Source: a phage | DNA: 64,000 nt | Strand: one strand, 5' to 3' | Assembly (NCBI GenBank): GCA_025823825.1 | Contig: GCA_025823825.1_4720.1 | In this document: positions 33,057-63,985 of the stretch, one piece after another | Numbering within the stretch: the stretch's first letter is position 1 | Layout: every line of letters starts with the position of its first letter | Position numbers and translations under genes: made by a program | Notes under the pieces: generated by a model | The model's database searches: none | The model's input: the letters and a program-made list of their open reading frames with translations, nothing else | Told to the model about the DNA's origin: nothing

Positions 33057-33075
33057 GGGATACCCTGGGGTATCC
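33057..33075. promoter_or_regulatory. palindrome GGGATACC-CTG-GGTATCC in divergent intergenic region
   Basis: Between the divergent starts 33025 (-) and 33130 (+); AAATATTACT lies 30 nt upstream of the plus-strand ATG. Confidence 0.45.
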
Positions 33076-33129
33076 TGTGTTAACAGCGGTAAAATATTAC
33101 TGTAACTATAAAATAAGGGGGCCTCTCCC

Positions 33130-34410: not shown

Positions 34411-34420
34411 CCAAACATAA

Positions 34421-34452
34421 CCCTCCTCCAACCCATCAGGGAAGGAGGAGGG
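34421..34452. terminator. conserved CCTCC/GGAGG hairpin element (family member 5)
   Basis: CCCTCCTCC-AACCC-ATCA-GGGAA-GGAGGAGGG; flanks CATAA ... AATATG. Confidence 0.65.
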
Positions 34453-34461
34453 AATATGCTG

Positions 34462-35367: not shown

Positions 35368-35382
35368 TTAACACCTCTTAGG

Positions 35383-36267: not shown

Positions 36268-36283
36268 GTCTTTTCCTATTTAA

Positions 36284-37135: not shown

Positions 37136-37145
37136 TGTTTATTCC

Positions 37146-38081
37146 TTAGCCTTGTTCTTCTGGAGAACGACCCTGGAGGCTTGCGGTATGTCCGTCGACG
37201 TTGTAATAGAAAATCAATGGACCGCCAACGGCAGTACAGTAGTTTTCATCCAGACTGATCTCGATACCGTATTGGTAACCTGCTCTTGCTGGAATACGTC
37301 CGCCTAACTCACCGTTGAAAGCCACTTTAGCATTATACAGGTTATACGGTGCGACATTGTCGTCTAATACCCAACGATCGGTAGTCATTTCAGCCAGAAG
37401 ATCGGCAACCACCACATCGCTAATAACTGTACCTGTTACCAGCGAAGCCAGCAGTTCACCGTAATCAGAGGTATCACGACTGTAACTGTAAATCTCACCG
37501 CTAGCGCGTACGCCTTGACCAAAGAACTTAAGACCATCCAGCTCCTTGATCGCGATAATATCATCAAGATTCGGTACACGCGACTTCATCAAGATACGAA
37601 CGCTCCCCGTCCAAGCCAGGCAGTTAGATGCGACACGAAGCAATTGTCCGTTAACAGTATCCCAGTTAAGTTCGTCGTTGACGATTTCTTCCGCGGTAAG
37701 ACCAAGACCGAAACGTTCTTTGATGATAGGCCAGATATCACGCATCTTGGCGGCGTCTGGCGCATCGATAAGAATAGGAGCTACGTTACGCAGATACGCA
37801 CCGATGTTAATACGGTCGTAATACAGTGTCGTCGAACCTTCGTAATCGTCTAACTCGGTAAGCTTAGCGGTTGCTGTCGCCGTAATCTGGGTGTCGCGCT
37901 CATAGGCGCTTTGGTTGGTGGTTGGTGTTCCTAAAACCAATAATTCAGGGGTTAGGATATGCTCTCCGTTCTGAGGTGGGTTATCGTGGTTGATAAGACC
38001 ATACACGAGATCGGATGAGGGTAAAGAGACGTCGACCGGGTAAAGTTCGGTGTCGTCAATAGTTGTTACCGTATCACTCAC
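37146..38081 (-). CDS. paralogous virion-type protein, family member C (311 aa)
   Basis: Motifs ERFGLGL, TDRWVLDDN, NLYNAKV and LDENYCTAVGGPLIFYYN. Confidence 0.6.
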   Translation of the reverse strand: MSDTVTTIDDTELYPVDVSLPSSDLVYGLINHDNPPQNGEHILTPELLVLGTPTTNQSAYERDTQITATATAKLTELDDYEGSTTLYYDRINIGAYLRNVAPILIDAPDAAKMRDIWPIIKERFGLGLTAEEIVNDELNWDTVNGQLLRVASNCLAWTGSVRILMKSRVPNLDDIIAIKELDGLKFFGQGVRASGEIYSYSRDTSDYGELLASLVTGTVISDVVVADLLAEMTTDRWVLDDNVAPYNLYNAKVAFNGELGGRIPARAGYQYGIEISLDENYCTAVGGPLIFYYNVDGHTASLQGRSPEEQG

Positions 38082-38140
38082 GGTGACCTCCTCGCCAGGA
38101 ATTAGATAAAAAAGACTTTACGATTTGCTGCGCTATCACG

Positions 38141-40552: not shown

Positions 40553-40579
40553 GATCGGTCCTCCAAGGAGCCAGTGTAA

Positions 40580-43489: not shown

Positions 43490-43522
43490 ACGGATGTAAA
43501 AAAAAAAATAACACATAGTTAA

Positions 43523-43557
43523 CCTTCTCCCCAACCCGATGAGGGAAGGGGAGAAGG
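43523..43557. terminator. conserved CCTCC/GGAGG hairpin element (family member 6)
   Basis: CCTTCTCCCC-AACCC-GATGA-GGGAA-GGGGAGAAGG, preceded on the plus strand by an A10-12 run; flanks CATAG ... CTATG. Confidence 0.65.
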
Positions 43558-43574
43558 GCTATGCGCTATTTAAT

Positions 43575-43850
43575 TTATTTCGAGGTTAACCACGATTCAA
43601 TTATGGTGAGTTTGCTTCTCAGTACGCGCCAACTAGGGTGTGGTGGGATCACAGCGCCATTGTCGATTACGGTTAGCTGAACCTGGTACTTCTGTTGCAT
43701 ACGCGCTACCGTGTCGCTTATCGAGAGGAAAAGCTGGTAACGTTCATATGCCGTCAGTTCACTGTCCTGTTGAACTGCGTTGGCTGCTAACGTAATTTCG
43801 CGTAAGTCCTTTGCATCCACAGAGACGGTAATGAGTTTATATTGACTCAT
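43575..43850 (-). CDS. hypothetical protein (91 aa)
   Basis: Track ORF. Confidence 0.5.
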   Translation of the reverse strand: MSQYKLITVSVDAKDLREITLAANAVQQDSELTAYERYQLFLSISDTVARMQQKYQVQLTVIDNGAVIPPHPSWRVLRSKLTIIESWLTSK

Positions 43851-43869
43851 ACGGTTTCCTTATCAACTA

Positions 43870-43891
43870 GGGTATTGCAAATACAATACCC
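43870..43891. promoter_or_regulatory. palindrome GGGTATTG-CAAATA-CAATACCC
   Basis: 8-bp perfect stem between genes, about 30 nt upstream of the start at 43850. Confidence 0.4.
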
Positions 43892-43911
43892 ACCGTCGGA
43901 CGATAAGTTAA

Positions 43912-46470
43912 TTACTGCTCTTCACGTTCCAGCAGATACTCGGAAGCGGTAATACCGTTTACCGTACGTACTGCTTTCAGACGAGTATCATCGCTCAGAA
44001 TTACAGTAACAGATTGCAGACCTTTTACTTTGGTTTCGAAGGTCTTGAACACCTGATCCAGCATACGAGCAATGCTTGGGTTGGTTGCAGCCGATGCGTG
44101 AGTGTAACCGCTCTGATTCAGCTTCAGAATCTTGGCGTTGGTCGGTACGCGAACAACAACATGTGGGCGCATCGCGAATACGCTGTGATTGAACCAGTAA
44201 GCGTCGTTACTATCTTCGTCGGTAACGATGTCTGGATTAACACGCATATCCTCGACAGCCGCATCCGCCAAACGACGTTCGATTTCATCGGCGTCCAGAG
44301 AGCCATCTTTCTCCAGTTCTGCACGATACTCACTCATGGCAACCAGATGACGTTCACGATTCGCTGCAGATTTTTCGTGAGCGGCTTTCAGGTAGTCATG
44401 CATGTTGTACAGTTCAGCCATGGAAAGACGAATGTTCCACTGACCTTCGCCATCACGATTGCAGTAGAGACACTTCAGCATGTTGACCCAGGTGTAGTAG
44501 CAATTGGCGAATTCATCTTCAATGAACTTCTGGTCCATTTTAAGATCGTGAATCAGCCAACCGGACAGTTCTCCGATATCATCAACGAAGCTAGAGATGG
44601 TGGTTTCAGAGAAGTTCTTCGGTACGATACGTTTGATCAGCTTATTGACGTCTTTGGTCATGCTATCGTTCAGGAAATGCCAGATACGCAGAGGAATGAC
44701 ATCTCGATACTGTTGCATGATCTGACGATAAGCTTTGATATCGTCGCTACGACCTTTATCAATAGACAACGCATCCAGGAATTCATGGATTGCATCCAGC
44801 TCTTTGTCGGTATAGGTTCCCAGATAGGAATTGACGGTGGCCAGGAATGCTAATGCGTCGTTTTGGTTGACGTCGGTGTTGGTCTGCTGAATGATCGCCA
44901 CTGCAGCTTTAGTTTCAGCATCCTCAACGCTTGACGCTGCGATCGCGTCGGTGACGGTAAACAGTTTCATTTCGCGCTGTTCACCGACAACGATTGGCTC
45001 ACGCTGAACCGGCTTGTTAAGACTAACGCGAACAACTTCTGCTTGCGCGATACGATCCAGTTTTGCCATTTCCTGCTCTGCCATACGACGAGCGGTTGGA
45101 TCTGATTCAAGTTCGATGTATTCCACTTCTTCCTCCGTGAGGGATGTAATGTCAACAATGGTTTCATGAAGAATTCCGTTTTCGTCGATACGTGCCCGAC
45201 GAGCGAAGTGCCTGAAGTCATACAACGTCGGCCAACGACAATTAGGCGCATAGTCTTTGGCTTTCAGACGCATCTGCATAAATTCATCATGTTGAACAAC
45301 ACGACCGTAACGCTTAGCATCTTCGGTCGCATCAATTGGATTAACGGTCTTTGTTGCCGTAGCGGAACGAGCCGTACGAACCGGTTCCGGTTTCACCTGT
45401 GCCGGTTCAGGTTGAACGGGTTTCTGCTGTCCAGCCTTAACATGCCATTCTGGCTCTTCGTACTGTTCAGCAAATTGCTCAGCCGCTGCAAAGATATCGT
45501 TGATACCACCAATATCTCCTTCAGGATTTGTCGAGTAAATCCGTGGTTGCGGTGCCTCGTAACGCGGCGCTGTAGCAGCAGGTGCCTCATCAACGTTATG
45601 ATCGTCATCACCAACATCATACAAACGGTTGAACGCACAATCCTTCGAATCAATGTACGATGGTGTTTGTGGTTGGACAACCGTAGGCCGAGGTTGTGCG
45701 CCGTATCCTGGTGTTGTTGGAGCCATACCACGCATAACTGCCGGGTTAGGTTGGTATTGTGGTTGCGGGTAGGTTCCACCATACGTGGCGTACGCAGGCT
45801 GTTGCGGTTGACCGTATCCACCACCAACCATCGCACTTGCTTGCGGCCCACGATAAGTCATCCCCATCTGCATCACCTGCTGCTTCAAACCGCGTGACTT
45901 CTGAGCGATTTGCGCTAGGCTTCCGCTTTTATTCAGCTGCGTGTACTTATTCGCGGCTTCCGGGTTAATGCGTGATAATTCGATCGCGCGATAATATTCC
46001 GGGTACTGATTAGGTTCAAAGAGCCACGTTACAAGATGATACAGCGCAACTGTGCTCACAGCAGCAGAGACGATCTGGTCGTCGGACGCGTTCTGTGGCA
46101 TCGGGTTGATGTAAGAGAACACGTTCCAACAACAGTCTTCAACAAGCGATTCCATCATCATATCGTTATTGGTATAACGTGCGACGAACTCGGTTTGTAT
46201 TTTGTCTTGCTGAGCGAAGTCTTTCAGGACATTAAAGATGGCTTGACGGATTTTGACGATCGTCGCTTCTTGGGTGATGAAGTTATAGTTCTGCTGATAT
46301 GAGGGTTGTTGGTATTGTGGTGGTTGATAGGCGTTATTCGGGTATGCGCCGTACGGCGATTGCTGATACTGTTGCTGACGAACCTGTTCAGCCGCATGAT
46401 TAATCGTGCTCGTATAAGGGTTTTCGCTATAGCCCATTTGCTGATACATGTTGTTACTGCCATTATACAT
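43912..46470 (-). CDS. protein with Gln/Tyr/Pro-rich low-complexity regions (852 aa)
   Basis: AAGGA Shine-Dalgarno; N-terminus QQYQQSPYGAYPNNAYQPPQYQQPSYQQNY and a second stretch GGGYGQPQQPAYATYGGTYPQPQYQPNPAVMRGMAPTTPGYGAQPRPTVVQPQTPSY. Confidence 0.65.
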   Translation of the reverse strand: MYNGSNNMYQQMGYSENPYTSTINHAAEQVRQQQYQQSPYGAYPNNAYQPPQYQQPSYQQNYNFITQEATIVKIRQAIFNVLKDFAQQDKIQTEFVARYTNNDMMMESLVEDCCWNVFSYINPMPQNASDDQIVSAAVSTVALYHLVTWLFEPNQYPEYYRAIELSRINPEAANKYTQLNKSGSLAQIAQKSRGLKQQVMQMGMTYRGPQASAMVGGGYGQPQQPAYATYGGTYPQPQYQPNPAVMRGMAPTTPGYGAQPRPTVVQPQTPSYIDSKDCAFNRLYDVGDDDHNVDEAPAATAPRYEAPQPRIYSTNPEGDIGGINDIFAAAEQFAEQYEEPEWHVKAGQQKPVQPEPAQVKPEPVRTARSATATKTVNPIDATEDAKRYGRVVQHDEFMQMRLKAKDYAPNCRWPTLYDFRHFARRARIDENGILHETIVDITSLTEEEVEYIELESDPTARRMAEQEMAKLDRIAQAEVVRVSLNKPVQREPIVVGEQREMKLFTVTDAIAASSVEDAETKAAVAIIQQTNTDVNQNDALAFLATVNSYLGTYTDKELDAIHEFLDALSIDKGRSDDIKAYRQIMQQYRDVIPLRIWHFLNDSMTKDVNKLIKRIVPKNFSETTISSFVDDIGELSGWLIHDLKMDQKFIEDEFANCYYTWVNMLKCLYCNRDGEGQWNIRLSMAELYNMHDYLKAAHEKSAANRERHLVAMSEYRAELEKDGSLDADEIERRLADAAVEDMRVNPDIVTDEDSNDAYWFNHSVFAMRPHVVVRVPTNAKILKLNQSGYTHASAATNPSIARMLDQVFKTFETKVKGLQSVTVILSDDTRLKAVRTVNGITASEYLLEREEQ

Positions 46471-46504
46471 TTCTTACGATCCTTTTTATTTATTCGGTTA
46501 TGTG

Positions 46505-48301
46505 TCAATCGATTATGTCACGATCGTTAATTTCTACAATTTCTTCATCGAATCGACCGACGTCTTTCTTCAATCCTGCATTGGTTGCTGCAACGTCATT
46601 TGCAATTTGTGGGGTAATGATTAACCGACCACGTTCGTCGATAGGTGCGTACATACTGAACTTCTGACGTCCGGTTGGTTCGGAGTGTGGAAGATTCAGA
46701 TAGCTTGCACAGAACGGGATGGAACCACTAACCAAACGACTCTCGTCAGCCAATGCAGCACCGCCTGCGTTTTGGCTCTGGAGAACAACATGCGTGCTCA
46801 CTTTGAACAGCATGCAATCACCAGGTGACTGAATCGATGTTGCCACTTTCTCACGTTTATCACGATTGCTCTGGATATTGAGAATCGCTTCCGTTGCAAC
46901 TTGATTTCGCAACGCCTTCTGTACATCGCGATTGGTCATCTCTTTACGGTTGTTCTGTCGTTTACCACGTTCTGTGGTTTTAAGATGGAACCCCAGTTTA
47001 AAGATGCTCTTACGCACATCCTCCATGACATATTCCAACACCATCAATTCCTTACCGAACATCGTCGTGGTATCAACACGACTCATTTCGATAGTGACAT
47101 TGTCAATCAGATACGCCATAAATTCGTAGAAGTCGTCGCAAGGAATATTTTCCTGTTTGAACTTCTTCTGCTGAATCTCGTCAACGTAAAGATCGAGACT
47201 GTCGATGTGGTGGTTTACATCACGCAACAAACGTGCATCCGCGTTGTTGTTATTAAAGATAATCAAACCGAGTAATGTACGCCAATGGTCTGGCGCATTC
47301 GCGAACTCCTCAACCGGATAGTCTTCCGGAAAACGATCGTAATAACGGTCGATGAGATACAAGAATGCACCGACAAGGCCAAGAACAATACGTTCCGTGC
47401 CTCCACGTCTTACAGCAATTTGAATATCAGGATGTTTGTAACGTACAGCGCTAGCGCTACGGCTTTTACCGCTTTTGCTGATACTAAAACCTTTAGGAAT
47501 AACCCCCATGGTGCGATAGATTACCCATTGGTCACGCGGAAAATCACGTTCAGCAAGGTTCCGTCCGGTTACGGCTTCGACACCTGCAAAACGTCGGAAA
47601 CACTCACCCACACCGTACTTCGCAAAGAGATAGTGACCCAGTGTGGTTACGCTGGTGTGGTTGATGTTGTCACCGTTCACTTTACTTTGTTTGGTAAGAT
47701 GATAGATTTGTGACCAGGGTAATGACAGGTAATGACGATAATCGATACCGGTCGGTGTATCATTGCTCAGGAACTGATACGGCGTACGTTTAACCGTGAT
47801 TTTATCACGCGGAAGCATGATGAACGCCATGTCTTTCGTGTAACTGATTACGGGGTCAGCGAGTACCGCACTGAGAATGAAGTTCGCACCACGTAGACGC
47901 ATTTTACCACCCTGACCTACCGCGGGTAATAGGAGAGGATGTCGGATAATGCAGTAGTCCTTTCCTGGTTCACGACGGTCACCTGATTCCATCGCGCCGT
48001 ACCAGCGGAATTCCAGCATCACCATAAACACATCGGAAGGCGCAAGGTCGAAGGTCAGCTTACCGCTATCCTTCCCTTTGGTTTTCTTTCCTCCGCTTAA
48101 GTAGTGGAACTGTTCGCGGGCCATACAACGACGCAGGCCATGATACACCAGATCCTTAGGTAAACTATCTTTGCTGTTCCGCCAAAGACGATCAACATAG
48201 GACTCAACATCTTGCATCTTATCGACGACGATGTTGCGTGCTATCTTCTCGTTCATCTTCGGTGCAAGCTCAGCGACAGCTTTGCAGAATCTAGGATCCA
48301 T
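46505..48301 (-). CDS. hypothetical protein (598 aa)
   Basis: Track ORF starts at GTG 48304; the ATG at 48301 has AAGGAG 6 nt upstream. Confidence 0.6.
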   Translation of the reverse strand: MDPRFCKAVAELAPKMNEKIARNIVVDKMQDVESYVDRLWRNSKDSLPKDLVYHGLRRCMAREQFHYLSGGKKTKGKDSGKLTFDLAPSDVFMVMLEFRWYGAMESGDRREPGKDYCIIRHPLLLPAVGQGGKMRLRGANFILSAVLADPVISYTKDMAFIMLPRDKITVKRTPYQFLSNDTPTGIDYRHYLSLPWSQIYHLTKQSKVNGDNINHTSVTTLGHYLFAKYGVGECFRRFAGVEAVTGRNLAERDFPRDQWVIYRTMGVIPKGFSISKSGKSRSASAVRYKHPDIQIAVRRGGTERIVLGLVGAFLYLIDRYYDRFPEDYPVEEFANAPDHWRTLLGLIIFNNNNADARLLRDVNHHIDSLDLYVDEIQQKKFKQENIPCDDFYEFMAYLIDNVTIEMSRVDTTTMFGKELMVLEYVMEDVRKSIFKLGFHLKTTERGKRQNNRKEMTNRDVQKALRNQVATEAILNIQSNRDKREKVATSIQSPGDCMLFKVSTHVVLQSQNAGGAALADESRLVSGSIPFCASYLNLPHSEPTGRQKFSMYAPIDERGRLIITPQIANDVAATNAGLKKDVGRFDEEIVEINDRDIID

Positions 48302-48340
48302 CACACACTCCTTTCAGAAAGTTGCTTAAGCAGATTAAAG

Positions 48341-49777
48341 TTACTTTTTCGATGACGCCTTCTCAAGAATCTTGAAAAAGGTCATACCTATACCGACAAC
48401 AGCCGCGGTTATGCTTGCAGCGGCTTTCCAAACATCGACGTTACGTTGACGTCGCGCTTCTTCCGCTTCACGTTGTCTTTTTGCCTCTTCATCACGTCGA
48501 CGTATCTCAGCAGCAAACTCGTCGTGCTTACGTTTGGATTCTTCGTCTCGACGACGAAGTTCAGCGACGAATTCTTCATGTTTGCGTTTAGCCTCGTCAT
48601 CACGACGTTTTAAATCAGCTTGATAATCTTCATGTATTTGTCTACGTAGATCATCTTGACGTTTCATTTCGGCTTGGTGTTGTTCCATCCTACGTTTTTG
48701 TTCGTCTTTAAGCTGATCGAGTTCGGCTTTATGTTGTTCATCACGCAGCTTTGCATCAGCGCGATGCGCCTCATGCATCTGTGCGATAACTGCCTTGTGT
48801 TCATCCGCCATACGTCGCATTTCAGCCATCACCCCTTTAAGGGTTTCTTCTGATGCCTTACGTTCGTAGCTACGCTGGTCGAAATCATTTTTGTAGGCTT
48901 CTTTTTGGATGGGGTCGCGCCAATGCAATGCCGACTCACGTGTCGGAAAAACATTGTACTTCCACATCTCTTTTTCCAAATCTTCGACCGGTACGAAGAT
49001 GGAGTCATTATTCCCGAAGGTAACCAACATACCTGGCGCGCCTGCTCCATTCGTTGGTTTTATTTCGAACGCTTTCCCCAACACGTTAACCCATAAGCTA
49101 TACGGATTATGAAAGTCGGGCGGCGTCCAATGGATAGTGAGTTGTGTTCCGAGAATCCGGAAACCCTCTGTTTTTCCCGTCAAGCTCCGCGCGCACGTTG
49201 CGATGTAGGGGTGATCAATCCCTTTCGTAACGTGGTCTGCGCTTTTGTATTCTCCTTTAACTTTTACGATTGCCACGTTGATTTGCGCGACATAAGCAGG
49301 TTGATTAAAGTTCAACGTGTTGAGGTCAATTTGACATATTTCATCCAGCGTATCGTACCAGTCTTGCTGGTCTAATAGACGCGGCATTTTCTCTGTGTTA
49401 ACAATACGACGGATATGCGGTTTCCTTATCGCATAACCTGTGCCGTTTTTAACACGGAGTATATCCCGACGTCTACCCGCGTAGACGAAGTTTCTGAATG
49501 CACCATTCGCATTAGATACGTCATGGCTGTCAACTATTACAGGACTACGAAATTTTGAACGTCGTACGATCCTGAATGTATTGCCGTCCTCAACCCTACC
49601 AGGAATGTACTGGAACATATTGTCGGAGGTGATAACCAACACGGTATGGCCAGATTCGTTAATACATGCCCATCCTAATTCCAGGTCATATAACGGTTCA
49701 GCATAACCGTCAATGCGATAAGCGTGCGTACCATCCCACGGTTCGAACGCGGTATCACATATTGGCATGGAGGGCAT
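48341..49777 (-). CDS. tail-anchored protein with long Glu/Arg/Lys-rich helix (478 aa)
   Basis: ATG at 49777 with GGAGG 6 nt upstream; about 120 aa of ...RRDEEAKRKHEEFVAELRRRDEESKRKHDEF...; then a C-terminal hydrophobic segment AAASITAAVVGIGMTFF. Confidence 0.6.
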   Translation of the reverse strand: MPSMPICDTAFEPWDGTHAYRIDGYAEPLYDLELGWACINESGHTVLVITSDNMFQYIPGRVEDGNTFRIVRRSKFRSPVIVDSHDVSNANGAFRNFVYAGRRRDILRVKNGTGYAIRKPHIRRIVNTEKMPRLLDQQDWYDTLDEICQIDLNTLNFNQPAYVAQINVAIVKVKGEYKSADHVTKGIDHPYIATCARSLTGKTEGFRILGTQLTIHWTPPDFHNPYSLWVNVLGKAFEIKPTNGAGAPGMLVTFGNNDSIFVPVEDLEKEMWKYNVFPTRESALHWRDPIQKEAYKNDFDQRSYERKASEETLKGVMAEMRRMADEHKAVIAQMHEAHRADAKLRDEQHKAELDQLKDEQKRRMEQHQAEMKRQDDLRRQIHEDYQADLKRRDDEAKRKHEEFVAELRRRDEESKRKHDEFAAEIRRRDEEAKRQREAEEARRQRNVDVWKAAASITAAVVGIGMTFFKILEKASSKK

Positions 49778-49927
49778 CGTCAACCTCCATCAGATTGAAA
49801 ACTATCACGCATAATACATTTCCCTTTTTCTTGTTCTTATCAAGCCGACAGCCGACGGTTTCAGCATCGTTCCTAGCGCGAGAACGACCTTACGTGTTGT
49901 CTATGCCTTATTCATCGCAGGCGTCTG

Positions 49928-49952
49928 TCACCTAGGTAATGTAAGCGTCAAA
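49928..49952 (-). promoter_or_regulatory. degenerate copy of the promoter-like motif
   Basis: Minus-strand reading TTTGACGCTTACATTACCTAGGTGA matches the consensus at 19 of 25 positions, about 150 nt upstream of the start of 48341..49777. Confidence 0.35.
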
Positions 49953-49986
49953 TTTTTTCTATTCGCAACGATAAACGGCATAGAAA

Positions 49987-50016
49987 CCTCCCCCAACCCT
50001 TACGGGCTGAGGGAGG
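49987..50016. terminator. conserved CCTCC/GGAGG hairpin element (family member 7)
   Basis: CCTCCCCC-AACCC-TTACGGGCTGA-GGGAGG, downstream of the 740-aa gene; on the minus strand it is followed by TTTCTATGCCGTTTATCG. Confidence 0.55.
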
Positions 50017-50115
50017 CTGACTTATGTATCACGGTGCCGGATGAATGTCCGGTGCAATGAAACCATCCGCAACGTTGTCGTCAAGAATATCATCCAACGA
50101 AGCAGCTACGGTAGT

Positions 50116-52338
50116 TCAGTTAGTCTGAACCGGCAGCTTGATGTTTTCGGTGTAGACCTTACGCAGGTTCACAACGTTAATCAGACCCAGCAGCGGGCAG
50201 TTGTTAACGAAGCGGCAGCGCGGCTGAACCATGGTTTCTTTAGAAACCTGACCGTTACGGGTAACCTGAGCAACAGATACCAGTTCCGGTACATACAGGA
50301 ACATACCGAAGGTCAGCGGATCCGGAGAACCCTGGATACCACGAGACAGGGTCACGAAGATCTTATCGCGCAGCATGACGTTCGGGTTATCTACAACCAC
50401 GAAGTTGAAGCTTACACCAACGGTACGGAAATCGCCATCGGTCTGCAGGAACTGCGGGATGTAGTTGTCAGTTGCTACTACGCAACGCGGTTTCTCATCA
50501 GCGTTGGAAGACAGCAGCTGCAGAGCTGGCTGATAACCAGACTCGGAGTACATGCGGTATGCCATCTCACGAATCACGTTCATGATCGCAGCAGACACTT
50601 CAGCACGACGTTCTGCAGTGGTGGTACCCTGAACAGATTTCTCCAGGTCCAGATTGATTTCTTCGAACCACGGACGGATCAGGTAACGACCGAAACCTTC
50701 GATCTGGATGTCACCGAACTGACGGAAGCGAGAGGTCGCAACCGCTTTCAGTGCGTCTTTGTAGCTGAACAGTTTCTCAACCATCAGGTTGTCGAAACGT
50801 GCGTTAGCAGCTTGGATCAGAACGTCCAGGTCAGCAGCGTTTTCTTCCCAATCCAGCGGACGAGGAATGGAGAACGGAGCCAGCAGGCCGATTGCGTAAC
50901 GTTCTTGCTTCATGTTGAAGTCAAGGTGCTTACCGCGCTCACGACGGTTGCTGTTGTTACGGCGGATACGCAGTTCGTAACCAACCAGTTTGAAGCTCAG
51001 GTCTTCAGCCAGTTGTTTGAACTCTTCGCTCTTACGCGGTTGTTCGATGTTGTCCTGATCAACCAGGCGATACAGTTCAGCGTTAGCGCCGTTAACACGC
51101 AGACCCGCTTTCTCTACGTTGGAAGAACCGTAAACTTCGATCGCCAGCTGAGCAGCGGATTTCGCATCGATGATGTCCTGCAGCGCTTCAGCTTTCGCAC
51201 CTTTAACGTCTTTGGTGTTCTCATCAACGAAGATGGAGTGGGTGTCGAACGCCAGGGTCATTTTGCGGAAGTCGCCTTCCAGGGATTTCTGGAAACCGTT
51301 GGTGATCAGACCAGATACGTCGAACGGTACGTAAGAGGTTTTGCTGTGCTTGGTAGATTTGATTTCTACCAGGATTTTGGTCAGCGTGATCTGGGCGTCC
51401 AGCGCGTCGGTGTTGTCGCTGTAACCGTTAGCCAGAATGCTGTCGTCTTCAGCGATACCGATCATGTCGATCAGTTTATCAACAGCCAGGTAAGACGTTT
51501 TATAAGTTACGCCTTTAATTTCGATGTCGCGCGGAGCAACGATCGTTTTATCAACGAAGTACTGCGCGTTGGCATCGTCAGCACGATAGATCGGATGCAG
51601 ATCGGTCACGTCGTTGGACAGAACGTCGTTGTACATGAACGCATCCAGCAGCGGACGACGTACCCAATCAGCCGGAGTACCGTCAGCGTTACGACGCAGG
51701 TGGTTGAACACCAGCGGGCGACGGAAAGATACGTCGTAACCGATCTGGTTCGGAGCCAGAACGATGGTGTTATACAGTTCGTTACCCATGCGGCTCAGAC
51801 GAGAAGCCTTCACGTTGAACACAACGGAGTACGGCATCATGTCACGCAGTTCTTTCTGGTCGTAGGACAGCTGAACCAGTTCTTCAGATTCGCAACCGCA
51901 GGAATCAGCAGCCATCATGACGAAGTTAGAGCTGTCAACTTCACGACCTGACGGAGTGGTGCTGATGTTCATGGAACGTGCTTGTTTAGCATATTCTACC
52001 GGGTTACCATGAGCCAGCATGATCAGTGCTGCTGCACGAGCCTGCTGTGCGTTCATGGTGAACAGCTGTTCTTCAATACGCTGCTTCTCTTCCGGAGTGG
52101 TGGTTTCGAAGCCCAGCATGGACAGAACCGGTTCTTCGGCTTTACGGATGTCGCTGCTGAAGCTCTTAACATCCATTTCGTTAACCAGTTTGTCCATGGA
52201 TTTGAAATCAACCTTAGAAGCAGATTCCATAGACAGGAAGGTGTTCTCCAGACCTTTGTCTGCTGGTTTGCTACCATTAGCGGTCAGGAACTGGCGAGTG
52301 GCCGCGACCTGTTGGCTAAGAAGGGTTTTATCATTCAT
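50116..52338 (-). CDS. putative major capsid protein (740 aa)
   Basis: The strongest codon optimisation in the window (CTG, CGT, GGT, ACC, GTT, TCT, CCG); AAGGA Shine-Dalgarno; terminator downstream; size is in the range I recall for phiKZ-type major capsid proteins. Assignment is by inference, without a homology search. Confidence 0.5.
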   Translation of the reverse strand: MNDKTLLSQQVAATRQFLTANGSKPADKGLENTFLSMESASKVDFKSMDKLVNEMDVKSFSSDIRKAEEPVLSMLGFETTTPEEKQRIEEQLFTMNAQQARAAALIMLAHGNPVEYAKQARSMNISTTPSGREVDSSNFVMMAADSCGCESEELVQLSYDQKELRDMMPYSVVFNVKASRLSRMGNELYNTIVLAPNQIGYDVSFRRPLVFNHLRRNADGTPADWVRRPLLDAFMYNDVLSNDVTDLHPIYRADDANAQYFVDKTIVAPRDIEIKGVTYKTSYLAVDKLIDMIGIAEDDSILANGYSDNTDALDAQITLTKILVEIKSTKHSKTSYVPFDVSGLITNGFQKSLEGDFRKMTLAFDTHSIFVDENTKDVKGAKAEALQDIIDAKSAAQLAIEVYGSSNVEKAGLRVNGANAELYRLVDQDNIEQPRKSEEFKQLAEDLSFKLVGYELRIRRNNSNRRERGKHLDFNMKQERYAIGLLAPFSIPRPLDWEENAADLDVLIQAANARFDNLMVEKLFSYKDALKAVATSRFRQFGDIQIEGFGRYLIRPWFEEINLDLEKSVQGTTTAERRAEVSAAIMNVIREMAYRMYSESGYQPALQLLSSNADEKPRCVVATDNYIPQFLQTDGDFRTVGVSFNFVVVDNPNVMLRDKIFVTLSRGIQGSPDPLTFGMFLYVPELVSVAQVTRNGQVSKETMVQPRCRFVNNCPLLGLINVVNLRKVYTENIKLPVQTN

Positions 52339-52487
52339 TGAAAGTATCCTTTACAGAATTAACTTATATAAGTCGGTCGATAGACCATAGCGTACACGCG
52401 TGCATGCGCCACTATAGTATCAGTAAACACTTACCGTTATTGAGGTCGTGATACAACACTAAAAATGCCGCATAACTTTTCCCTACG

Positions 52488-53108
52488 TCATAAACGACGC
52501 AGGCGATAATGGATGGAACGATTGGTGCAATATGAACGGAACAGCGGCAATTGCGCAACTTCCGCAAGACTCATATTAATTCGCAGGTGTTCAATAACGG
52601 CGCTGTAGTTATCAGCAATACGATCGCTCAATAACTCTTCTGCCAATAAAGGAAGACAATCGACAACAATCGCGATCACATCCTCATTAACATAACGCAC
52701 CCGAACACTCAACGGACGTTTGTCTGGGCTGTAAGTTGGATCCGCCAAACGTCGTTCAATATCACGCGGATAGCTCGTCAGTAAATGGTAATAACCATTG
52801 TCATAACGATTGATGTACTCGCACAGCACATCAACATTCTTCTCTGGCGGCAAACCTGTTTCGTCATAGTGATACGCAAACATACCACCAAGCAGGTTGT
52901 TAAGATGAACTGCAGGGTTCGCTTGTTCGTGTTCTTTCGTGATGAAGAAAGGCACGTTTTGAGCTGCGAAATAAAAACCTACATCATTGGGCGATAGTAT
53001 GCCGAAAAGACTTTTAGGATCTAATAACACCTGTAAGTCATCACGCGCATTTCGAATGATCGCGTGTTCTACCCAATTCGGAACGACGAGATATCGGAGT
53101 TCCTTCAT
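52488..53108 (-). CDS. hypothetical protein (206 aa)
   Basis: Track ORF, divergent from 53148..54758. Confidence 0.55.
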   Translation of the reverse strand: MKELRYLVVPNWVEHAIIRNARDDLQVLLDPKSLFGILSPNDVGFYFAAQNVPFFITKEHEQANPAVHLNNLLGGMFAYHYDETGLPPEKNVDVLCEYINRYDNGYYHLLTSYPRDIERRLADPTYSPDKRPLSVRVRYVNEDVIAIVVDCLPLLAEELLSDRIADNYSAVIEHLRINMSLAEVAQLPLFRSYCTNRSIHYRLRRL

Positions 53109-53147
53109 TATGATTACCTCTTTGCAAGTATCGAAAGGATTGAGTCG

Positions 53148-54758
53148 ATGGACCCAAAACAGATAGCCATTAAGATTATTACGTTACTGTTTCGTAATGC
53201 ACAATTGAACCATCCCGATCCCAGTACGATCGAACATGTTAAATCCGTCTTAGATAAAGTCGAACCCCCGAAAAACCATCTCGCTACAGACGTAGATAGA
53301 GAGGTTTTCAGCAACCTGATGAACACCATTCATTGGATGCTGGAACAACCGTTATCGGAACCTTTCGATAAACAACAGTTGTTACAAAGGATACGTTTAG
53401 ATTGCCTTGAACAAAGCAATCTTTACGAGATTCTTGCCGACGGACTGTACGATATCGAAGACGACGCTCATATCAGTAAGGTCTGTTCGCTCTATTACAA
53501 TGAATTACGTAATCTGATTACTCGTCGTCGTGTTTTCGAAACCTTTAGAAACACGTACATGGATATCAGTAACGGGCGACTTGGGGATAAAGAATTTTTC
53601 GATGCGATGGCGAATTTGAAATTATCGCTAGACAGTATCGAAATGGATACCGAAAATCCCGAAGAGATGTCGTGTATGATTGACGGCTTTATCGCTGACA
53701 GCGAAGACGATATCGAGAAAGTTGAACGTATGTTCGTCAAAGCGATGGAACGTAACAGTCCTGAAGGTGGATTTGTAACCGGCTGGCAAGGCTTTAATAA
53801 AATGTTGGGGTCGGTCGGTGTTTTACGTCGCGGTACCTTAGGACTGATTGGTGCAATGCAGCACCGGAACAAGTCAGGTGTGTTGTTAAAACTGTTCACG
53901 CATCTGGCATTGTACAATAAACCCCATTTCTTTTTTCCGGAGCGAGCAAAGAAAGCACTACTGATTCACTTGTCAACAGAAAACGAAGTAGAAGAAAACA
54001 CGCTTCAGATATACAAGAACATGCGAGAACAGGAAACAGGCGAATATGTCGATATTCGTAAGATTGACCCTCGCGAGGCATCACGTTATGTGTTGAAGGT
54101 GTTCAACGATGCGGGTTTCTCTGTTTGTATGCGTCGTGTTGATGGGATGAGTTATAAACAACTCGCTAATCTCATCGACCATTTCGAACGCATGGGTTAT
54201 GAAGTCATGGCGTTGTTCATTGACTATCTGAAAATGTTCTCATCGGAAGGGTTGGATAGAAATGGACCGACCGGCGCATGGCTCCAAGAACTCTTCAACA
54301 AAGTACGTAACCTCTGCAGCGTTAAACGTATTTTAGGTATGACCGTACACCAGCTGTCATCTGATGCGAAGATGCGTGCGCGTGATGGCAACGATGAAGA
54401 GTTCGTTGACCAAGTCGCGGGTTTAAGTTACTGGGATGGTTGTAAAGGGATTGACCGTGAGATTGACCTCGAAGTGATTGTTGATATCGTTAAGGAACCG
54501 GGCAAACGTCAAAGCTGGCAAGTCTTTGCGTTAGGGAAAGACCGTCAACCGGATAACGGCTCAACGAAACCTGAAGACAAACACTTCGCGATGCCATTCC
54601 AAACCATCGGGATGCTTCCTGATGATTACGGTAAGAAAGCAGTGTATTGCCGCAAGGTTGGCGGACAACCTGTCTCCGAGGGAGGTAAAGGTCCGTGGAA
54701 CAAGTTCGATGAAAACGCAGCACCGAGTAATGAATTACAATTTGACTTAGAATTTTAA
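53148..54758 (+). CDS. hypothetical protein (536 aa)
   Basis: Track ORF 53064..54758 trimmed to the ATG at 53148 (AAGGA 10 nt upstream) to remove overlap with the divergent gene. Confidence 0.6.
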   Translation: MDPKQIAIKIITLLFRNAQLNHPDPSTIEHVKSVLDKVEPPKNHLATDVDREVFSNLMNTIHWMLEQPLSEPFDKQQLLQRIRLDCLEQSNLYEILADGLYDIEDDAHISKVCSLYYNELRNLITRRRVFETFRNTYMDISNGRLGDKEFFDAMANLKLSLDSIEMDTENPEEMSCMIDGFIADSEDDIEKVERMFVKAMERNSPEGGFVTGWQGFNKMLGSVGVLRRGTLGLIGAMQHRNKSGVLLKLFTHLALYNKPHFFFPERAKKALLIHLSTENEVEENTLQIYKNMREQETGEYVDIRKIDPREASRYVLKVFNDAGFSVCMRRVDGMSYKQLANLIDHFERMGYEVMALFIDYLKMFSSEGLDRNGPTGAWLQELFNKVRNLCSVKRILGMTVHQLSSDAKMRARDGNDEEFVDQVAGLSYWDGCKGIDREIDLEVIVDIVKEPGKRQSWQVFALGKDRQPDNGSTKPEDKHFAMPFQTIGMLPDDYGKKAVYCRKVGGQPVSEGGKGPWNKFDENAAPSNELQFDLEF

Positions 54759-54781
54759 ACACAAAAAAAGATTGTACGGTT

Positions 54782-54813
54782 CCCTCCTCCAACCCGTAAG
54801 GGAAGGAGGAGGG
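54782..54813. terminator. conserved CCTCC/GGAGG hairpin element (family member 8)
   Basis: CCCTCCTCC-AACCC-GTAA-GGGAA-GGAGGAGGG between convergent genes; T7 run on the minus strand; GGGGTTATG on the 3' flank. Confidence 0.65.
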
Positions 54814-54829
54814 GTTATGACCGCTTTGA

Positions 54830-55156
54830 TTAACTTATTGTCGTGAATTCATTAGGTGAAAATTTCCAGCCGTTCTCAGTGAGAAGCGTGTTGAGTTTCG
54901 CTGCAACGATAAGCCATGCATGCATGGCCGTTACATCGTATTGGCGATTCACTCGACGTTGGTTTTCGATATTGATTTGCTCCTGTTCGGTGATGTTTGG
55001 ATAAAGTGCGATAGCGCTAGGTTTACCCAGCGCGCTAGTCATCACCGCCGTACATTCACTGATAATGTTGTTTAAGTGGTAGTTATACACCGTTCCACGC
55101 ATGACGCGATGACGGCATTCGATAATAGCGTCGTAAATGATTTCTCGAGTAATCAT
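54830..55156 (-). CDS. hypothetical protein (108 aa)
   Basis: Track ORF; last gene of the operon behind the promoter-like motif at 58.6 kb. Confidence 0.5.
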   Translation of the reverse strand: MITREIIYDAIIECRHRVMRGTVYNYHLNNIISECTAVMTSALGKPSAIALYPNITEQEQINIENQRRVNRQYDVTAMHAWLIVAAKLNTLLTENGWKFSPNEFTTIS

Positions 55157-56272: not shown

Positions 56273-56719
56273 TTAGAAATTATTGCCGAACTGGTTATGG
56301 TTATATGGTTGGTAGTGTCCGTAATTACCTGGGAAGCCACCATACGGCACAGGCTCCGGTTTAGGGATTTCCATGGTCGGATTTTTGGAATTGATTGCCA
56401 TCACGTAAATTGTTACGGGTGATACCGCGCGATTCATTTCGACGGCCACACGACGGATGTAGCCAACGTATGCTGTTATTGCAGGCATTAGCTTGTCCCC
56501 TTCGGTAGTTATAACGGTACCATCAGAAAGAATCTCGCGAACCGCGCACCATTTACCAAGATGAACGCCTTGCTGCGGCTTTATTCCAGTAGCGATAGAG
56601 AGATAGGTATCGTACGTCGTTTGATGATTCGGATGGCTATAGATAGATTCTGCTTTGGTTTCGTCTTTTCCTAAGTATTCGCCTTGCATGGGGGTAGGAG
56701 TTGATGAAGAATGTGGCAT
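56273..56719 (-). CDS. paralog-family protein, short member (148 aa)
   Basis: Shares HP..TTYD.YL.I, W..VREI..DGT and LAIDSKNP/MAINSKNP with the next two genes. Confidence 0.6.
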   Translation of the reverse strand: MPHSSSTPTPMQGEYLGKDETKAESIYSHPNHQTTYDTYLSIATGIKPQQGVHLGKWCAVREILSDGTVITTEGDKLMPAITAYVGYIRRVAVEMNRAVSPVTIYVMAINSKNPTMEIPKPEPVPYGGFPGNYGHYQPYNHNQFGNNF

Positions 56720-56830
56720 GTTCGATTCTCCTTCGAGTTGTTTGATCGATTGTTCAACTGGTACTGATTACGATTGGTTGATAACAGTAGAGCTACCGCT
56801 TAAAAACTCTACCGTTGTTTAGATACCGTA

Positions 56831-57691
56831 TTAGGATATACGGTGCATCGTCGGTGCGATTGGTCGTTGACCAAGGTAGAATGTATATCTCGGACGATTC
56901 TTCGGTGCCTGGTTTGGTTGAGGATTCTTCGAATCGATAGCTAACACATAGTACTGAAGTGTGGGGTTGAGTGTCGTCAGATAGTTTCTGATGAACTCCT
57001 TGTTTAAACTTTCAGTCGGGGTTAATACATGTCCGTTGATTGTAACGACGGTGCCGTCGGAACGTATTTCACGAACAATGCACCAGGCCCCCGCACCAAC
57101 ATCGGTAGGGATAGTCGTGCTGGGTGTGATGGTTAGATATTTATCGAAGAATTCGCAGCAAAGAGGATGCTTATAGACCGTTACGGTATCATCTCCTGGC
57201 GAGGTTCTCTCTTTTGTTACAAGATCCATTGCTGGTACGAAAGTGTTGATTTTGGCAACCTTATCGGCATCTTCGTTCGCTTCGATATAAATCTCTGCTT
57301 TACCGTACACGCTCTGAACTAAACGACGTAACTGTTCGTATGTTTTCGGTGAGGTTAGCTGCACCCGACTGAGCAGTTCATCGTACCAAGCTTCGAAGGT
57401 GCTTGTTGGTATCTTAACGTATGCCTTATTCCCGGTTTCATTTTCATCCCGGAAGATAATCGCAACGGTATCAGGCTCGTCAAGAGAGTCCAGGTAAACG
57501 ATGTGCTCGACCAACGCAGAAAATGTCTTACGTCCAATTCCCCCATAGTACGGGATTGCTGAATGAACCAGCCGCCAGTTACATGAAGTTTGGATATGAT
57601 CGAAGGCGTTGATCATGTTTTTACTATAACGAAAAATTTCAGTAAAATATTCTTTACGTTCTTTACTAAGACGTTTGTATATCTTGGTCAT
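56831..57691 (-). CDS. paralog-family protein (286 aa)
   Basis: C-terminal domain ...YKHPLCCEFFDKYLTITPS...WCIVREIRSDGTVVT...YVLAIDSKNP; N-terminus MTKIYKRL parallels MTDIYQKL in 57745..58545. Confidence 0.6.
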   Translation of the reverse strand: MTKIYKRLSKERKEYFTEIFRYSKNMINAFDHIQTSCNWRLVHSAIPYYGGIGRKTFSALVEHIVYLDSLDEPDTVAIIFRDENETGNKAYVKIPTSTFEAWYDELLSRVQLTSPKTYEQLRRLVQSVYGKAEIYIEANEDADKVAKINTFVPAMDLVTKERTSPGDDTVTVYKHPLCCEFFDKYLTITPSTTIPTDVGAGAWCIVREIRSDGTVVTINGHVLTPTESLNKEFIRNYLTTLNPTLQYYVLAIDSKNPQPNQAPKNRPRYTFYLGQRPIAPTMHRIS

Positions 57692-57744
57692 TTTTGTAGC
57701 TCCTCGATTAAAGTAAAGATGAACGCGATCATTTATTATCGCTT

Positions 57745-58545
57745 TTAGTTTTTACCATTCCCCCAGCTAGGTTCTTCGTAGAAATGATGCGGATAACCAG
57801 AGTAGGAACCCATGACACAAGAGGCCGTTTCTTTTCGTGAATCGATGACCAGCGCATAAAACTGTCTGAGGTTCGACAACATAGAGAAATAAGACGACAG
57901 CACTTTTTCGTTTAACGCATCGCACGGTAAGCAGGTGCGACCGCAAAACGTCACAATACGGCCATCAGGATAGATCTCACGAATCATTCGCCATTCACCG
58001 ATGTCGACCGGCGACGGTGTAGATGTACCGCCCGTTATTGTTAAATATCGGTCGTACGTAGTACGGCATTCAGGATGAACGTAAATCGGTTGGGCATCAA
58101 TACTATCGTTTTCTGTTTGATCTTTACTCACGTATACCTCAAGGTAGATTGTTGGTAACCCGGTTAGAACGCCAGTATCACGACGTTTTTTGGTAATCCG
58201 GGGACGGATATTATCGAGCACGCCTTCCAGTTTTTCTGCGACTTCGTCAGCCGGTAATATATACCCGTATGTTGGTTCTGGGTCATCATCGTGGCTAAAT
58301 AAGATACGACAGTCGTTTTTATTAAATTCTATATCTTCAGGTGGGAAGATGATGACGCGAACCGTATGGCGTTCTGCGATATAAAATCCTTCAGGCCCCT
58401 CAGTTTTGGTAAGTGTAAAGGACCAGGATGAATGATCTTCAAGTGACGTGCCTGCCAGGAAAAAGTCCGCCCGAATTGGTGCGTTCCATTTCGCGATCAT
58501 ATTGGCGTGACCAATAACGCCTAATTTTTGATAAATATCTGTCAT
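57745..58545 (-). CDS. paralog-family protein (266 aa), first gene of the operon
   Basis: C-terminal domain ...YVHPECRTTYDRYLTITGG...WRMIREIYPDGRIVT...YALVIDSRKE; the promoter-like motif lies about 60 nt upstream. Confidence 0.6.
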   Translation of the reverse strand: MTDIYQKLGVIGHANMIAKWNAPIRADFFLAGTSLEDHSSWSFTLTKTEGPEGFYIAERHTVRVIIFPPEDIEFNKNDCRILFSHDDDPEPTYGYILPADEVAEKLEGVLDNIRPRITKKRRDTGVLTGLPTIYLEVYVSKDQTENDSIDAQPIYVHPECRTTYDRYLTITGGTSTPSPVDIGEWRMIREIYPDGRIVTFCGRTCLPCDALNEKVLSSYFSMLSNLRQFYALVIDSRKETASCVMGSYSGYPHHFYEEPSWGNGKN

Positions 58546-58600: not shown

Positions 58601-58625
58601 TCACCTTAGTAATATAGCCATGAAA
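58601..58625 (-). promoter_or_regulatory. promoter-like motif, copy 3 (TATATTAC core)
   Basis: Minus-strand reading TTTCATGGCTATATTACTAAGGTGA; differs from copy 1 at 2 of 25 positions. Confidence 0.55.
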
Positions 58626-58659
58626 TAAACTGGAGTAACGCGCTTAAGACAGCATAGAA

Positions 58660-63912: not shown

Positions 63913-63963
63913 CGCAGATTCCTGTTTGAAAGATAAGATATCACATGATGGTCGACAGCATAA

Positions 63964-63985
63964 AGCCCACCCCGAAGGGCGGGCT
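63964..63985 (-). terminator. hairpin, probably the terminator of a gene beyond the window end
   Basis: AGCCCACCCC-GAA-GGGCGGGCT; on the minus strand it is followed by CTTTATG. Confidence 0.4.

Follow-up and report, generated by a model that had tools for sequence, protein, structure and literature searches.

The window, i.e. the whole 64,000-nucleotide stretch analysed here, is with a probability of about 97% a piece of the genome of a Goslar-like E. coli jumbo phage (Goslarvirus, phiKZ-like, belonging to the nucleus-forming Chimalliviridae), the major capsid protein of which is encoded by the gene at 50116..52338. The window is colinear with positions 230590..237306 of the Escherichia phage Goslar genome and then from coordinate 1 onward, with nucleotide identity values of 92–98%. 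Sequence differences from Goslar of about 2–8%, three divergent patches and a 2.2-kb indel show that it comes from a distinct isolate, and the diversity of Goslar-like phages is greater than one reference genome suggests. Goslar itself was experimentally shown to build a chimallin shell, a phage nucleus and PhuZ filaments with a vortex (PMC9891218), so the window is nearly identical to a member of the Chimalliviridae with a demonstrated nucleus. Of the split polymerase typical of this family, it carries one predicted non-virion β-like subunit (46505..48301). The PhuZ tubulin is a non-core protein of the family, present in about 66% of its members. The first-pass annotation had suggested a phiKZ-like phage, and the best matches of the window indeed come from a phiKZ-like nucleus-forming phage and not from an unrelated family; the size and codon bias of one gene, together with a promoter word of 8 nt, thus sufficed to place an unlabelled window among such phages.

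The indel is a 2.2-kb cassette of three genes (56273..58545) coding for proteins of 148, 286 and 266 aa, which is absent from Goslar, the missing segment being 56305..58541, and is conserved in other Goslar-like genomes. None of the three ORFs matched a Pfam family, and the 266- and 286-aa ORFs had no PHROG match either. The 266-aa protein contains a conserved His/Cys cluster (H157, C160, C201, C205 and C208); its AlphaFold2 model, built on a 17-sequence alignment, was unusable (mean pLDDT 35, pTM 0.27). A speculative and rather doubtful suggestion is that the cassette, with an early-promoter-like motif of its own, serves early in infection to take over the host or counter its defences and varies between strains; the His/Cys cluster of the 266-aa protein would then bind a metal or some target in the host.

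Homologues of the 266-aa ORF carry the NCBI names Escherichia coli, Salmonella enterica and Shigella sonnei, as would be expected if the window were a prophage or some other region of a bacterial chromosome. Several of these homologues, three of the six with NCBI names among them, are nevertheless located on contigs of 236–250 kb, as long as a complete Goslar-type genome, and Goslar is virulent and packages a linear genome. Neither a tRNA gene nor any recognisable bacterial gene was found in the window, and a chromosomal origin is therefore considered extremely improbable. Rfam families were likewise not detected in the window.

The major capsid protein gene

The gene at 50116..52338 (minus strand) is an ATG-started ORF coding for a protein of 740 aa, with AAGGA located 8–12 nt 5′ of the start codon. 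It shares 99.2% nucleotide identity over 100% of its length, and 99.6% amino acid identity, with Goslar gp41 (YP_009820726.1; PDB 11bt, 11fg, 11mk, 11ml and 36za), which is likewise 740 aa long, differs by a few substitutions only and has like neighbours on both sides. The product matches the Pfam family PF25620 (PhiKZ_MCP) with 725.7 bits, the cut-off being 27 (E = 5.3e-218), covering positions 2–635 of the 635-position model, and its PHROG match is phrog_3231, "major head protein". In the PDB, chains named "Major capsid protein" (11bt and others) match it over the full length with 1640.7 bits and an essentially identical sequence, and a chain of 36za is also among the capsid matches. The phiKZ capsid protein gp120, the founder of PF25620, is 747 aa long and belongs to the same family (PDB 8y6v, E = 2.7e-55), although the identity is only 25.5%, over residues 158–731. 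Homologues were found in 226 phage records; 40 of these, sampled across the ranking, come mostly from jumbo phages of at least 200 kb, and hosts of phiKZ-like phages predominate in the organism tally.

The profile, the structural homologues and the gene neighbourhood agree, and the gene is the phage's major capsid protein gene, an orthologue of Goslar gp41 from the phiKZ gp120 family. The first-pass annotation had proposed a phiKZ-type capsid protein, a view now backed by PF25620, Goslar gp41 and phiKZ gp120, and the top homologues, which it had named as the decisive check, are capsid proteins. The finding is already known from Goslar, where gp41 has been characterised and GFP-tagged and its structure solved, and nothing new for capsid biology follows from it. 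The gp41-GFP fusion decorates Goslar capsids (PMC9891218). According to the cryo-EM structure (preprint 10.64898/2026.04.21.720040), the Goslar capsid has T = 27, with no density for residues 1–157. The copy number of gp41 in the Goslar virion has been determined as about 1,615. If this architecture from the literature applies here, the head would be a T = 27 icosahedron assembled from about 1,600 copies of the 740-aa protein. As the capsid chain in PDB 36za begins at residue 158, the N-terminal ~157 residues are probably removed in maturation, as a propeptide cut off by the head maturation protease.

The unusual codon usage of the gene, also pointed out in the first-pass annotation, was confirmed. 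Its effective number of codons (Nc) is 30.1, the strongest bias in the window (z = −4.8), compared with a mean of 51.5, a standard deviation of 4.5 and a minimum of 38.5 for the other 41 window ORFs of at least 150 aa. CTG accounts for 96% of Leu codons, CCG for 89% of Pro, GGT for 82% of Gly, TTC for 100% of Phe, and CGT together with CGC for 100% of Arg. Genes expressed at high levels in E. coli classically favour CTG, CCG, GGT, TTC and CGT/CGC as optimal codons, and such codon optimisation reflects a demand for very high late expression of the capsid protein. A 636-aa antisense ORF at 50041..51951 (plus strand) was rejected as a gene; it stays open only because of the capsid codon choice, the codons TTA, CTA and TCA being almost never used in the capsid gene (0, 0 and 1 occurrences, respectively).

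Genes surrounding the capsid gene

Four large unassigned ORFs had been listed in the first-pass annotation as candidates for shell or polymerase genes, and all four were found where it had placed them. One of them, 46505..48301, appears to encode a polymerase subunit; the other three code for the portal, for a wedge protein of the baseplate and for a helicase resembling DnaB, and none of the three is a shell, tubulin or polymerase gene.

The protein encoded at 46505..48301 (minus strand; 598 aa) is the orthologue of Goslar gp39. Judged solely by its homology to phiKZ gp123, it is assigned as the putative β-like subunit, namely the part with the β2 lobe, of the non-virion multisubunit RNA polymerase. 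Its residues 2–559 align with residues 3–522 of the PHIKZ123 chain of PDB 7ogp (7ogp_E), i.e. end to end, with E = 1.2e-40; phmmer against phiKZ gp123 gave E = 1.1e-45, and phrog_2943, "polymerase", was matched with E = 7e-120. The phiKZ protein (PDB 7ogp, 7ogr, 8que and 9rjs) is 543 aa long, occupies an equivalent place downstream of the capsid gene and is known to be the β-like subunit of the phiKZ non-virion RNA polymerase (PMC8287921, PMC7618050). No Pfam family of RNA polymerase domains was matched by 46505..48301 at E ≤ 0.01, which limits any claim that a β domain is detectable and leaves the membership in the gp123 family unaffected; the phiKZ polymerase subunits themselves are described in the literature as weakly homologous to β.

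The gene at 40580..43489 (plus strand) codes for the portal protein, the orthologue of Goslar gp36 and a homologue of phiKZ gp129, as follows from the PDB and the Goslar structure preprint: it matches "Portal Protein gp36" (11ed_J) over the full length with 2169.6 bits and PHIKZ129 (9xpe) with E = 1e-75. The product of 38141..40552 (minus strand), the orthologue of Goslar gp35 and a homologue of phiKZ gp128, matches "Virion structural protein" chains of PDB 11lx and 36za as well as PHIKZ128 (9xqs, E = 1.8e-110); gp35 was placed in the baseplate upper wedge in the same preprint. The fourth candidate, 53148..54758 (plus strand), is the orthologue of Goslar gp43 and encodes a divergent DnaB-like replicative helicase (Pfam PF20307 divDNAB, E = 1.4e-120; phrog_3213; phmmer against the phiKZ helicase, E = 4e-61).

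The gene at 52488..53108 (minus strand), the DNA of which maps to Goslar gp042, showed no sequence-level match in Pfam, PHROG or a comparison with phiKZ gp119; according to the preprint, gp42 belongs to the vertex-binding complex of the capsid and is the structural counterpart of gp119, so that the equivalence is positional in this work and structural in the literature. The gp40 orthologue (48341..49783, minus strand; ~480 aa) lies in the position of phiKZ gp121/gp122 with no detected similarity to either, and it had neither a Pfam match nor a significant PDB match; PHROG 7727, a family without assigned function, was matched only weakly. The fast-evolving 852-aa gp38 orthologue (43912..46470, minus strand) takes the place of phiKZ gp124, again with no sequence similarity detected. 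It matched nothing in PHROG or the PDB and gave a single sub-threshold match in Pfam, and when 1.84 billion representative proteins were scanned exhaustively with HMMER, one relative with 35% identity came up beyond close Goslar-like homologues.

Altogether, the window contains homologues of the phiKZ gp118-type helicase, gp120, gp123, gp127, gp128, gp129 and gp130. It retains the conserved neighbourhood consisting of the DnaB-like helicase gene on the opposite strand, the gp119-like gene, the capsid gene and the gp123-like gene. The portal/gp128 pair is found near the capsid gene in both phages, its orientation being inverted relative to phiKZ.

Shell, tubulin and the remaining polymerase genes

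It had been stated in the first-pass annotation that no polymerase or tubulin motif is visible in the window. This holds as far as the motifs are concerned, as NADFDGD, DFDGD and GGGTG[ST]G do not occur in any of the six reading frames of the 64-kb window, but a polymerase subunit is present nonetheless at 46505..48301. The NADFDGD probe could not detect it because the DxDGD motif belongs to another, β′-like subunit. The probes are weaker detectors than was assumed even for the genes they were meant for: Goslar PhuZ has SGGSGS instead of GGGTGSG, and the annotated frame of the Goslar non-virion β′ gene stops just past ...GYNADF (SFFN and a stop codon), where an annotated group I intron starts. 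Short catalytic-motif probes of this kind are thus poor detectors of split polymerase subunits and PhuZ in this phage group.

Scanning of about 40 window ORFs against Pfam and PHROG likewise revealed no chimallin, tubulin or further RNA polymerase families. Together with the six-frame result, this is what would be seen if the source were a jumbo phage such as AR9 or PBS1, which combines split polymerases with a phiKZ-type capsid protein and forms no nucleus, so that shell and tubulin genes would be truly absent from the genome; chimallin-less phages with a phiKZ-type capsid and polymerase genes are also known from the literature. Such a phage is, however, a highly improbable source of the window, which is colinear with Goslar and 92–98% identical to it over essentially the whole length, while Goslar does form the chimallin shell and PhuZ filaments in experiments (PMC9891218). 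In the Goslar genome the shell gene (HOV27_gp246) is located at 171003..172898, the PhuZ gene (HOV27_gp234) at 180856..181836 and the β′ subunit gene at 169639..170910, and five virion RNA polymerase subunits are known, namely gp78, gp196, gp205, gp207 and gp210. The shell, PhuZ and five virion polymerase genes all lie outside the stretch corresponding to the window, the shell and PhuZ genes by at least 50 kb. The reason why the window shows no genes for the shell, PhuZ and the remaining polymerase subunits is thus that, as in Goslar, they would be positioned elsewhere in the genome. Genes for a shell protein, a tubulin and split RNA polymerases, which the first-pass annotation had predicted, do exist in the near-identical Goslar genome, and by extrapolation from it the nucleus-forming isolate, 64 kb of whose ~237-kb genome is visible here, would be expected to carry chimallin, PhuZ and the remaining polymerase subunits as well.

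Putative early promoters and terminators

The phiKZ early-promoter consensus, TATATTAC (Table 2 of PMC7058600), occurs in the window as six exact matches, all on the minus strand, against 2.35 expected; at least six were obtained in 5 of 100 shuffles, a result that is borderline if taken alone. Three of the six sites are intergenic, though intergenic DNA makes up only 6.8% of the window, and the other three, inside genes, look like chance occurrences. The intergenic sites have TTTCAYGGCTATATTAC in common, within a 25-nt motif. When up to three mismatches were allowed, TTTCAYGGCTATATTAC was found four times compared to 0.21 expected, and none of 100 shuffles reached four.

The three intergenic copies, all on the minus strand, are located at 9213..9237 (TTTCACGGCTATATTACTTAGGTGA, with the gp4 orthologue following 24 nt after its 3′ end), at 21747..21771 upstream of the gp21 orthologue, and at 58601..58625 upstream of the 266-aa ORF of the cassette absent from Goslar. 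A degenerate copy, TTTGACGCTTACATTACCTAGGTGA, lies at 49928..49952 (minus strand) upstream of the gp40 orthologue and the polymerase-subunit gene; it has four mismatches to the 25-nt consensus, and the equivalent Goslar site is identical. There are thus only three to four copies in 64 kb. In Goslar, the shell (chimallin) gene is also preceded by the motif, about 65 nt upstream.

The copy at 9213..9237 resembles the predicted early promoters published for 201phi2-1, OBP, N1M2 and phiKZ (PMC7058600), the 201phi2-1 consensus being TTTRARR_BTATATTACDWHDGTG. The layout of phiKZ-group early promoters, TTT..-TATATTAC-N4-GTG, is matched by TTTCAYGGCTATATTAC-TTAG-GTGA in the window, whereas the sequence separating TTTCA from TATATTAC is peculiar to the Goslar group. 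The 25-nt motif, with its AT-rich TATATTAC in intergenic DNA upstream of genes, has the features of phiKZ-group early promoters, so the earlier reading of TATATTAC as a phiKZ-type early promoter agrees with the published consensus sequences, and a promoter function is predicted for it from sequence. In the surroundings of the capsid gene, there was no sign of a sigma-70-type promoter.

Just past the capsid gene, at 49975..50018 (minus strand), there is a putative phiKZ-type intrinsic terminator consisting of a GC-rich hairpin (−29.7 kcal/mol) followed by TCTATGCCGT, which conforms to the motif TYTATGCYGT. The published consensus of phiKZ intrinsic terminators is ...GGGRRGGBYTTATKYYGT (PMC10914365), and the TTATGCYGT following the window hairpins is in exact agreement with it, suggesting that these elements act as terminators. 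The TATG within the element was considered as a phiKZ-type late promoter and rejected as the primary reading, as the whole element fits the terminator consensus.

If the phiKZ scheme applies, the virion-packaged RNA polymerase would use the TTTCAYGGCTATATTAC...GGTGA elements as early promoters, including one in the interval that separates the capsid gene from the polymerase-subunit gene, and the transcripts would be ended by the hairpin-TTATGCYGT terminators. The early-promoter 25-mer and this terminator are handy markers of phiKZ-type transcription units in Goslar-like genomes.

The major capsid protein gene

The ORF at 50116..52338 (minus strand) opens with ATG downstream of an AAGGA ribosome-binding site and codes for a protein of 740 aa. 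Codon bias is stronger here than anywhere else in the window: the effective number of codons (Nc) is 30.1 (z = -4.8), whereas the 41 further ORFs no shorter than 150 aa average 51.5 (sd 4.5) and never fall below 38.5. Leu is encoded by CTG at 96% of its positions, Pro by CCG at 89%, Gly by GGT at 82% and Phe by TTC at 100%, with AGA, AGG, CGA and CGG completely absent. This set is that of highly expressed E. coli genes. The codon-optimised gene reported in the first-pass annotation is therefore real. A 636-aa ORF on the opposite strand (50041..51951, plus) was rejected as a gene: TTA, CTA and TCA occur 0, 0 and 1 times in the capsid gene, so the antisense frame stays open as an artefact of its codon bias. 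Another codon-biased gene, the gp23-like one at 23541..24086 (Nc 39.5), is likewise overlain by an antisense open frame.

Aligned over 100% of its length, the gene has 99.2% nucleotide identity to gp041, annotated as 'major head protein', of the nucleus-forming Escherichia phage vB_EcoM_Goslar, whose gene numbers are used here for orthologues, and the proteins share 99.6% amino-acid identity. The product matches the whole Pfam profile PF25620 'PhiKZ_MCP' (725.7 bits, cut-off 27), PHROG 3231 'major head protein', the full-length 740-aa 'Major capsid protein' chains of PDB entries 11bt, 11fg, 11mk and 11ml, the 583-aa chain of 36za, which corresponds to residues 158-740, and phiKZ gp120 (PDB 8y6v, E=2.7e-55). 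Its top homologues are thus capsid proteins, in support of the earlier view that the phage is phiKZ-like and that this gene encodes its phiKZ-type capsid protein. With TBLASTN, homologues were found in 226 phage records, 40 of which, sampled across the ranking, belong mostly to jumbo phages of at least 200 kb whose hosts include Pseudomonas, Erwinia, Salmonella, Serratia and Ralstonia; the next-best match after Goslar is about 32% identical, and phiKZ 25.5%.

GFP-tagged Goslar gp41 was seen to label capsids as they docked at the phage nucleus (PMC9891218), and about 1,615 copies of it form a T=27 capsid in which the first 157 residues have no density (preprint 10.64898/2026.04.21.720040), an indication that the protein, like that of phiKZ, is matured by proteolysis. 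The central finding is therefore already known, down to the solved structure of a near-identical protein, and only gp38, gp40 and a three-gene cassette without a Goslar counterpart are less charted.

RNA polymerase, tubulin and nuclear-shell genes

Four large ORFs had been listed as candidates for shell or polymerase proteins, one of which stands. The 598-aa product of 46505..48301 can be aligned with phiKZ gp123 from end to end (PDB 7ogp_E, E=1.2e-40; phmmer E=1.1e-45) and matches PHROG 2943 'polymerase', so one RNA polymerase subunit is encoded in the window, although no polymerase motif had been visible earlier. In phiKZ, the non-virion RNA polymerase has five subunits, two of them β-like; gp123 is one of these two and bears the β2 lobe, the catalytic DFDGD motif being located in another subunit, the β′-like gp55 (PMC8287921; PMC7618050), which is why a NADFDGD probe could never find the gp123-like subunit. 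The other three candidates are the portal at 40580..43489 (PDB 11ed_J 'Portal Protein gp36'; phiKZ gp129), the baseplate upper-wedge protein gp35 at 38141..40552 (phiKZ gp128, E=1.8e-110) and a divergent DnaB-like helicase at 53148..54758 (PF20307, E=1.4e-120); neither a shell protein nor a tubulin is among the four.

The phiKZ gene order is kept: helicase on the opposite strand, gp119-like gene, capsid gp120, two small or unknown genes, gp123 and the gp124-position gene, with counterparts of gp127, gp128, portal gp129 and gp130 near the capsid block. The polymerase-subunit gene is flanked by gp38 (43912..46470, minus strand, 852 aa), at the position of phiKZ gp124, and gp40 (48341..49783, minus strand, about 480 aa), at that of gp121/gp122, but neither shows detectable sequence similarity to its positional equivalent. 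Neither has a PDB match or a significant Pfam match, gp40 matches only weakly a PHROG of unknown function, and for gp38 a set of 1.84 billion representative proteins contains a single distant relative, with 35% identity.

A six-frame search of the window for NADFDGD, DFDGD and GGGTG[ST]G found none, in agreement with the first-pass annotation. That no shell protein, tubulin or further polymerase subunit is seen is explained by gene position and the limits of motif probes. The RefSeq-annotated Goslar nuclear-shell gene (171003..172898), PhuZ, the phage tubulin (180856..181836), and the β′ subunit adjoining the shell gene (169639..170910), as well as the five virion polymerase subunits gp78, gp196, gp205, gp207 and gp210 (preprint 10.64898/2026.04.21.720040), all lie beyond the Goslar span covered by the window, gp196 ending about 1.2 kb before the window start. 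Moreover, Goslar PhuZ has ...LSGGSGSVAG... in place of GGGTGSG, and the annotated first exon of the non-virion β′ gene reads ...GYNADF just before the frame closes, at the annotated position of a group I intron with an HNH endonuclease gene, so that the catalytic NADFDGD is split at the DNA level and missing from every frame; DFDGD is indeed found in no reading frame of the β′ locus (8236..10911 of Goslar locus L005, record 168235..170910). Motif probes are thus unreliable even at the correct Goslar loci.

Promoter-like and terminator-like signals

The word TATATTAC, earlier proposed to fit phiKZ-type early promoters, occurs six times, always on the minus strand, versus 2.35 expected; 5 of 100 shuffles reach six, and taken alone the count is weak. 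Three of the copies, at 9221, 21755 and 58609, are intergenic, with intergenic DNA making up 6.8% of the window, and lie 32-91 nt upstream of minus-strand genes. They extend to ...TACyTAGGTGA and share the 25-mer TTTCAYGGCTATATTAC, which has four matches at up to three mismatches versus 0.21 expected, and a degenerate fourth copy, TTTGACGCTTACATTACCTAGGTGA, is located at 49952..49928 (minus strand) between the capsid gene and gp40. The extended motif is missing from the intragenic copies (8262, 29473, 58254), which look like chance occurrences. The layout TTT..-TATATTAC-N4-GTG agrees with that of the early promoters predicted for 201phi2-1, OBP, N1M2 and phiKZ, tabulated as TTTRARR_BTATATTACDWHDGTG for 201phi2-1 and TATATTAC for phiKZ (PMC7058600). 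The same 25-mer, with two mismatches, is found in Goslar about 65 nt upstream of the start codon of chimallin, the nuclear-shell protein, which is expressed early (preprint 10.64898/2026.04.21.720040). Given this layout and position, the intergenic extended-motif sites are read as putative promoters used by the virion RNA polymerase. Through the copy at 49952, gp40, the gp123-like subunit and gp38 would belong to an early unit, in keeping with the production of the non-virion polymerase from early genes (PMC8287921).

TYTATGCYGT is present in five copies in the window versus 0.57 expected, and eight of the nine copies in the window and Goslar loci L004 and L005 directly follow a strong GC-rich hairpin, several with cUUCGg loops. 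The window sites with hairpins are 10190..10199 (plus strand) and 49975..49984, 58649..58658 and 63955..63964 (minus strand). The element after the capsid gene (50018..49975, minus strand, hairpin -29.7 kcal/mol) is located about 100 nt past the stop codon, just before the early-promoter-like motif. The copy at 12420, inside a gene and without a hairpin, looks like chance. As the motif equals that of the published phiKZ terminator consensus, BCCYCCCCHWWDGGGRRGGBYTTATKYYGT (PMC10914365), phiKZ-type termination signals appear, judging by sequence, to be conserved in an E. coli phage.

Differences from Goslar and the three-gene cassette

Window positions 1..6717 correspond to Goslar 230590..237306 (98.0% identity) and those from 6664 on to Goslar from coordinate 1 (92-98%), so the window runs across the arbitrary start point of the record and covers 230590..237307 and about 1..55100. 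The 54 bp at 6664..6717 match the Goslar record at both of its ends, meaning that the deposited linear record has a short terminal overlap. Goslar gene numbers diverge beyond about gene 186 between RefSeq NC_048170 and GenBank MK327938: papers from 2022 (PMC9891218) call the shell protein gp189, RefSeq and the 2026 preprint gp246 (HOV27_gp246), while RefSeq gp187-gp198 are located at 227-237 kb, so the numbering is easily confused between papers.

The isolate is different from Goslar, and neither of two further relatives in IMG/VR is identical to it. Three patches (about 12208-12734, 21228-21576 and 27759-28613) are too divergent for alignment with Goslar, whereas 25143..27191 is still alignable at only about 92% identity. 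These regions fall in the orthologues of gp9, gp21, gp26 and the tail-fibre-like gp25. The last two are of the host-recognition type and contain repeated fibre modules, and the host range of the isolate may therefore differ from that of Goslar.

A region of about 2.2 kb (56305..58541) has no Goslar counterpart and corresponds to three minus-strand ORFs of 148, 286 and 266 aa (56273..56719, 56831..57691 and 57745..58545), whereas Goslar has only the 63-aa gp047 at this position. None of the three has a Pfam match, and the 266-aa and 286-aa ORFs have no PHROG match. The AlphaFold2 model of the 266-aa protein was unusable (pLDDT 35). This protein has 19 homologues that are 49-93% identical, and several are encoded on Goslar-like contigs about 236-250 kb long in data from E. 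coli, Salmonella and Shigella; H157, C201, C205 and C208 are invariant and C160 nearly so. The 266-286-148 order recurs in several public assemblies, and of the IMG/VR relatives L007 mostly has the cassette and L008 lacks it. The cassette was probably lost by Goslar and does not look gained in the window isolate.
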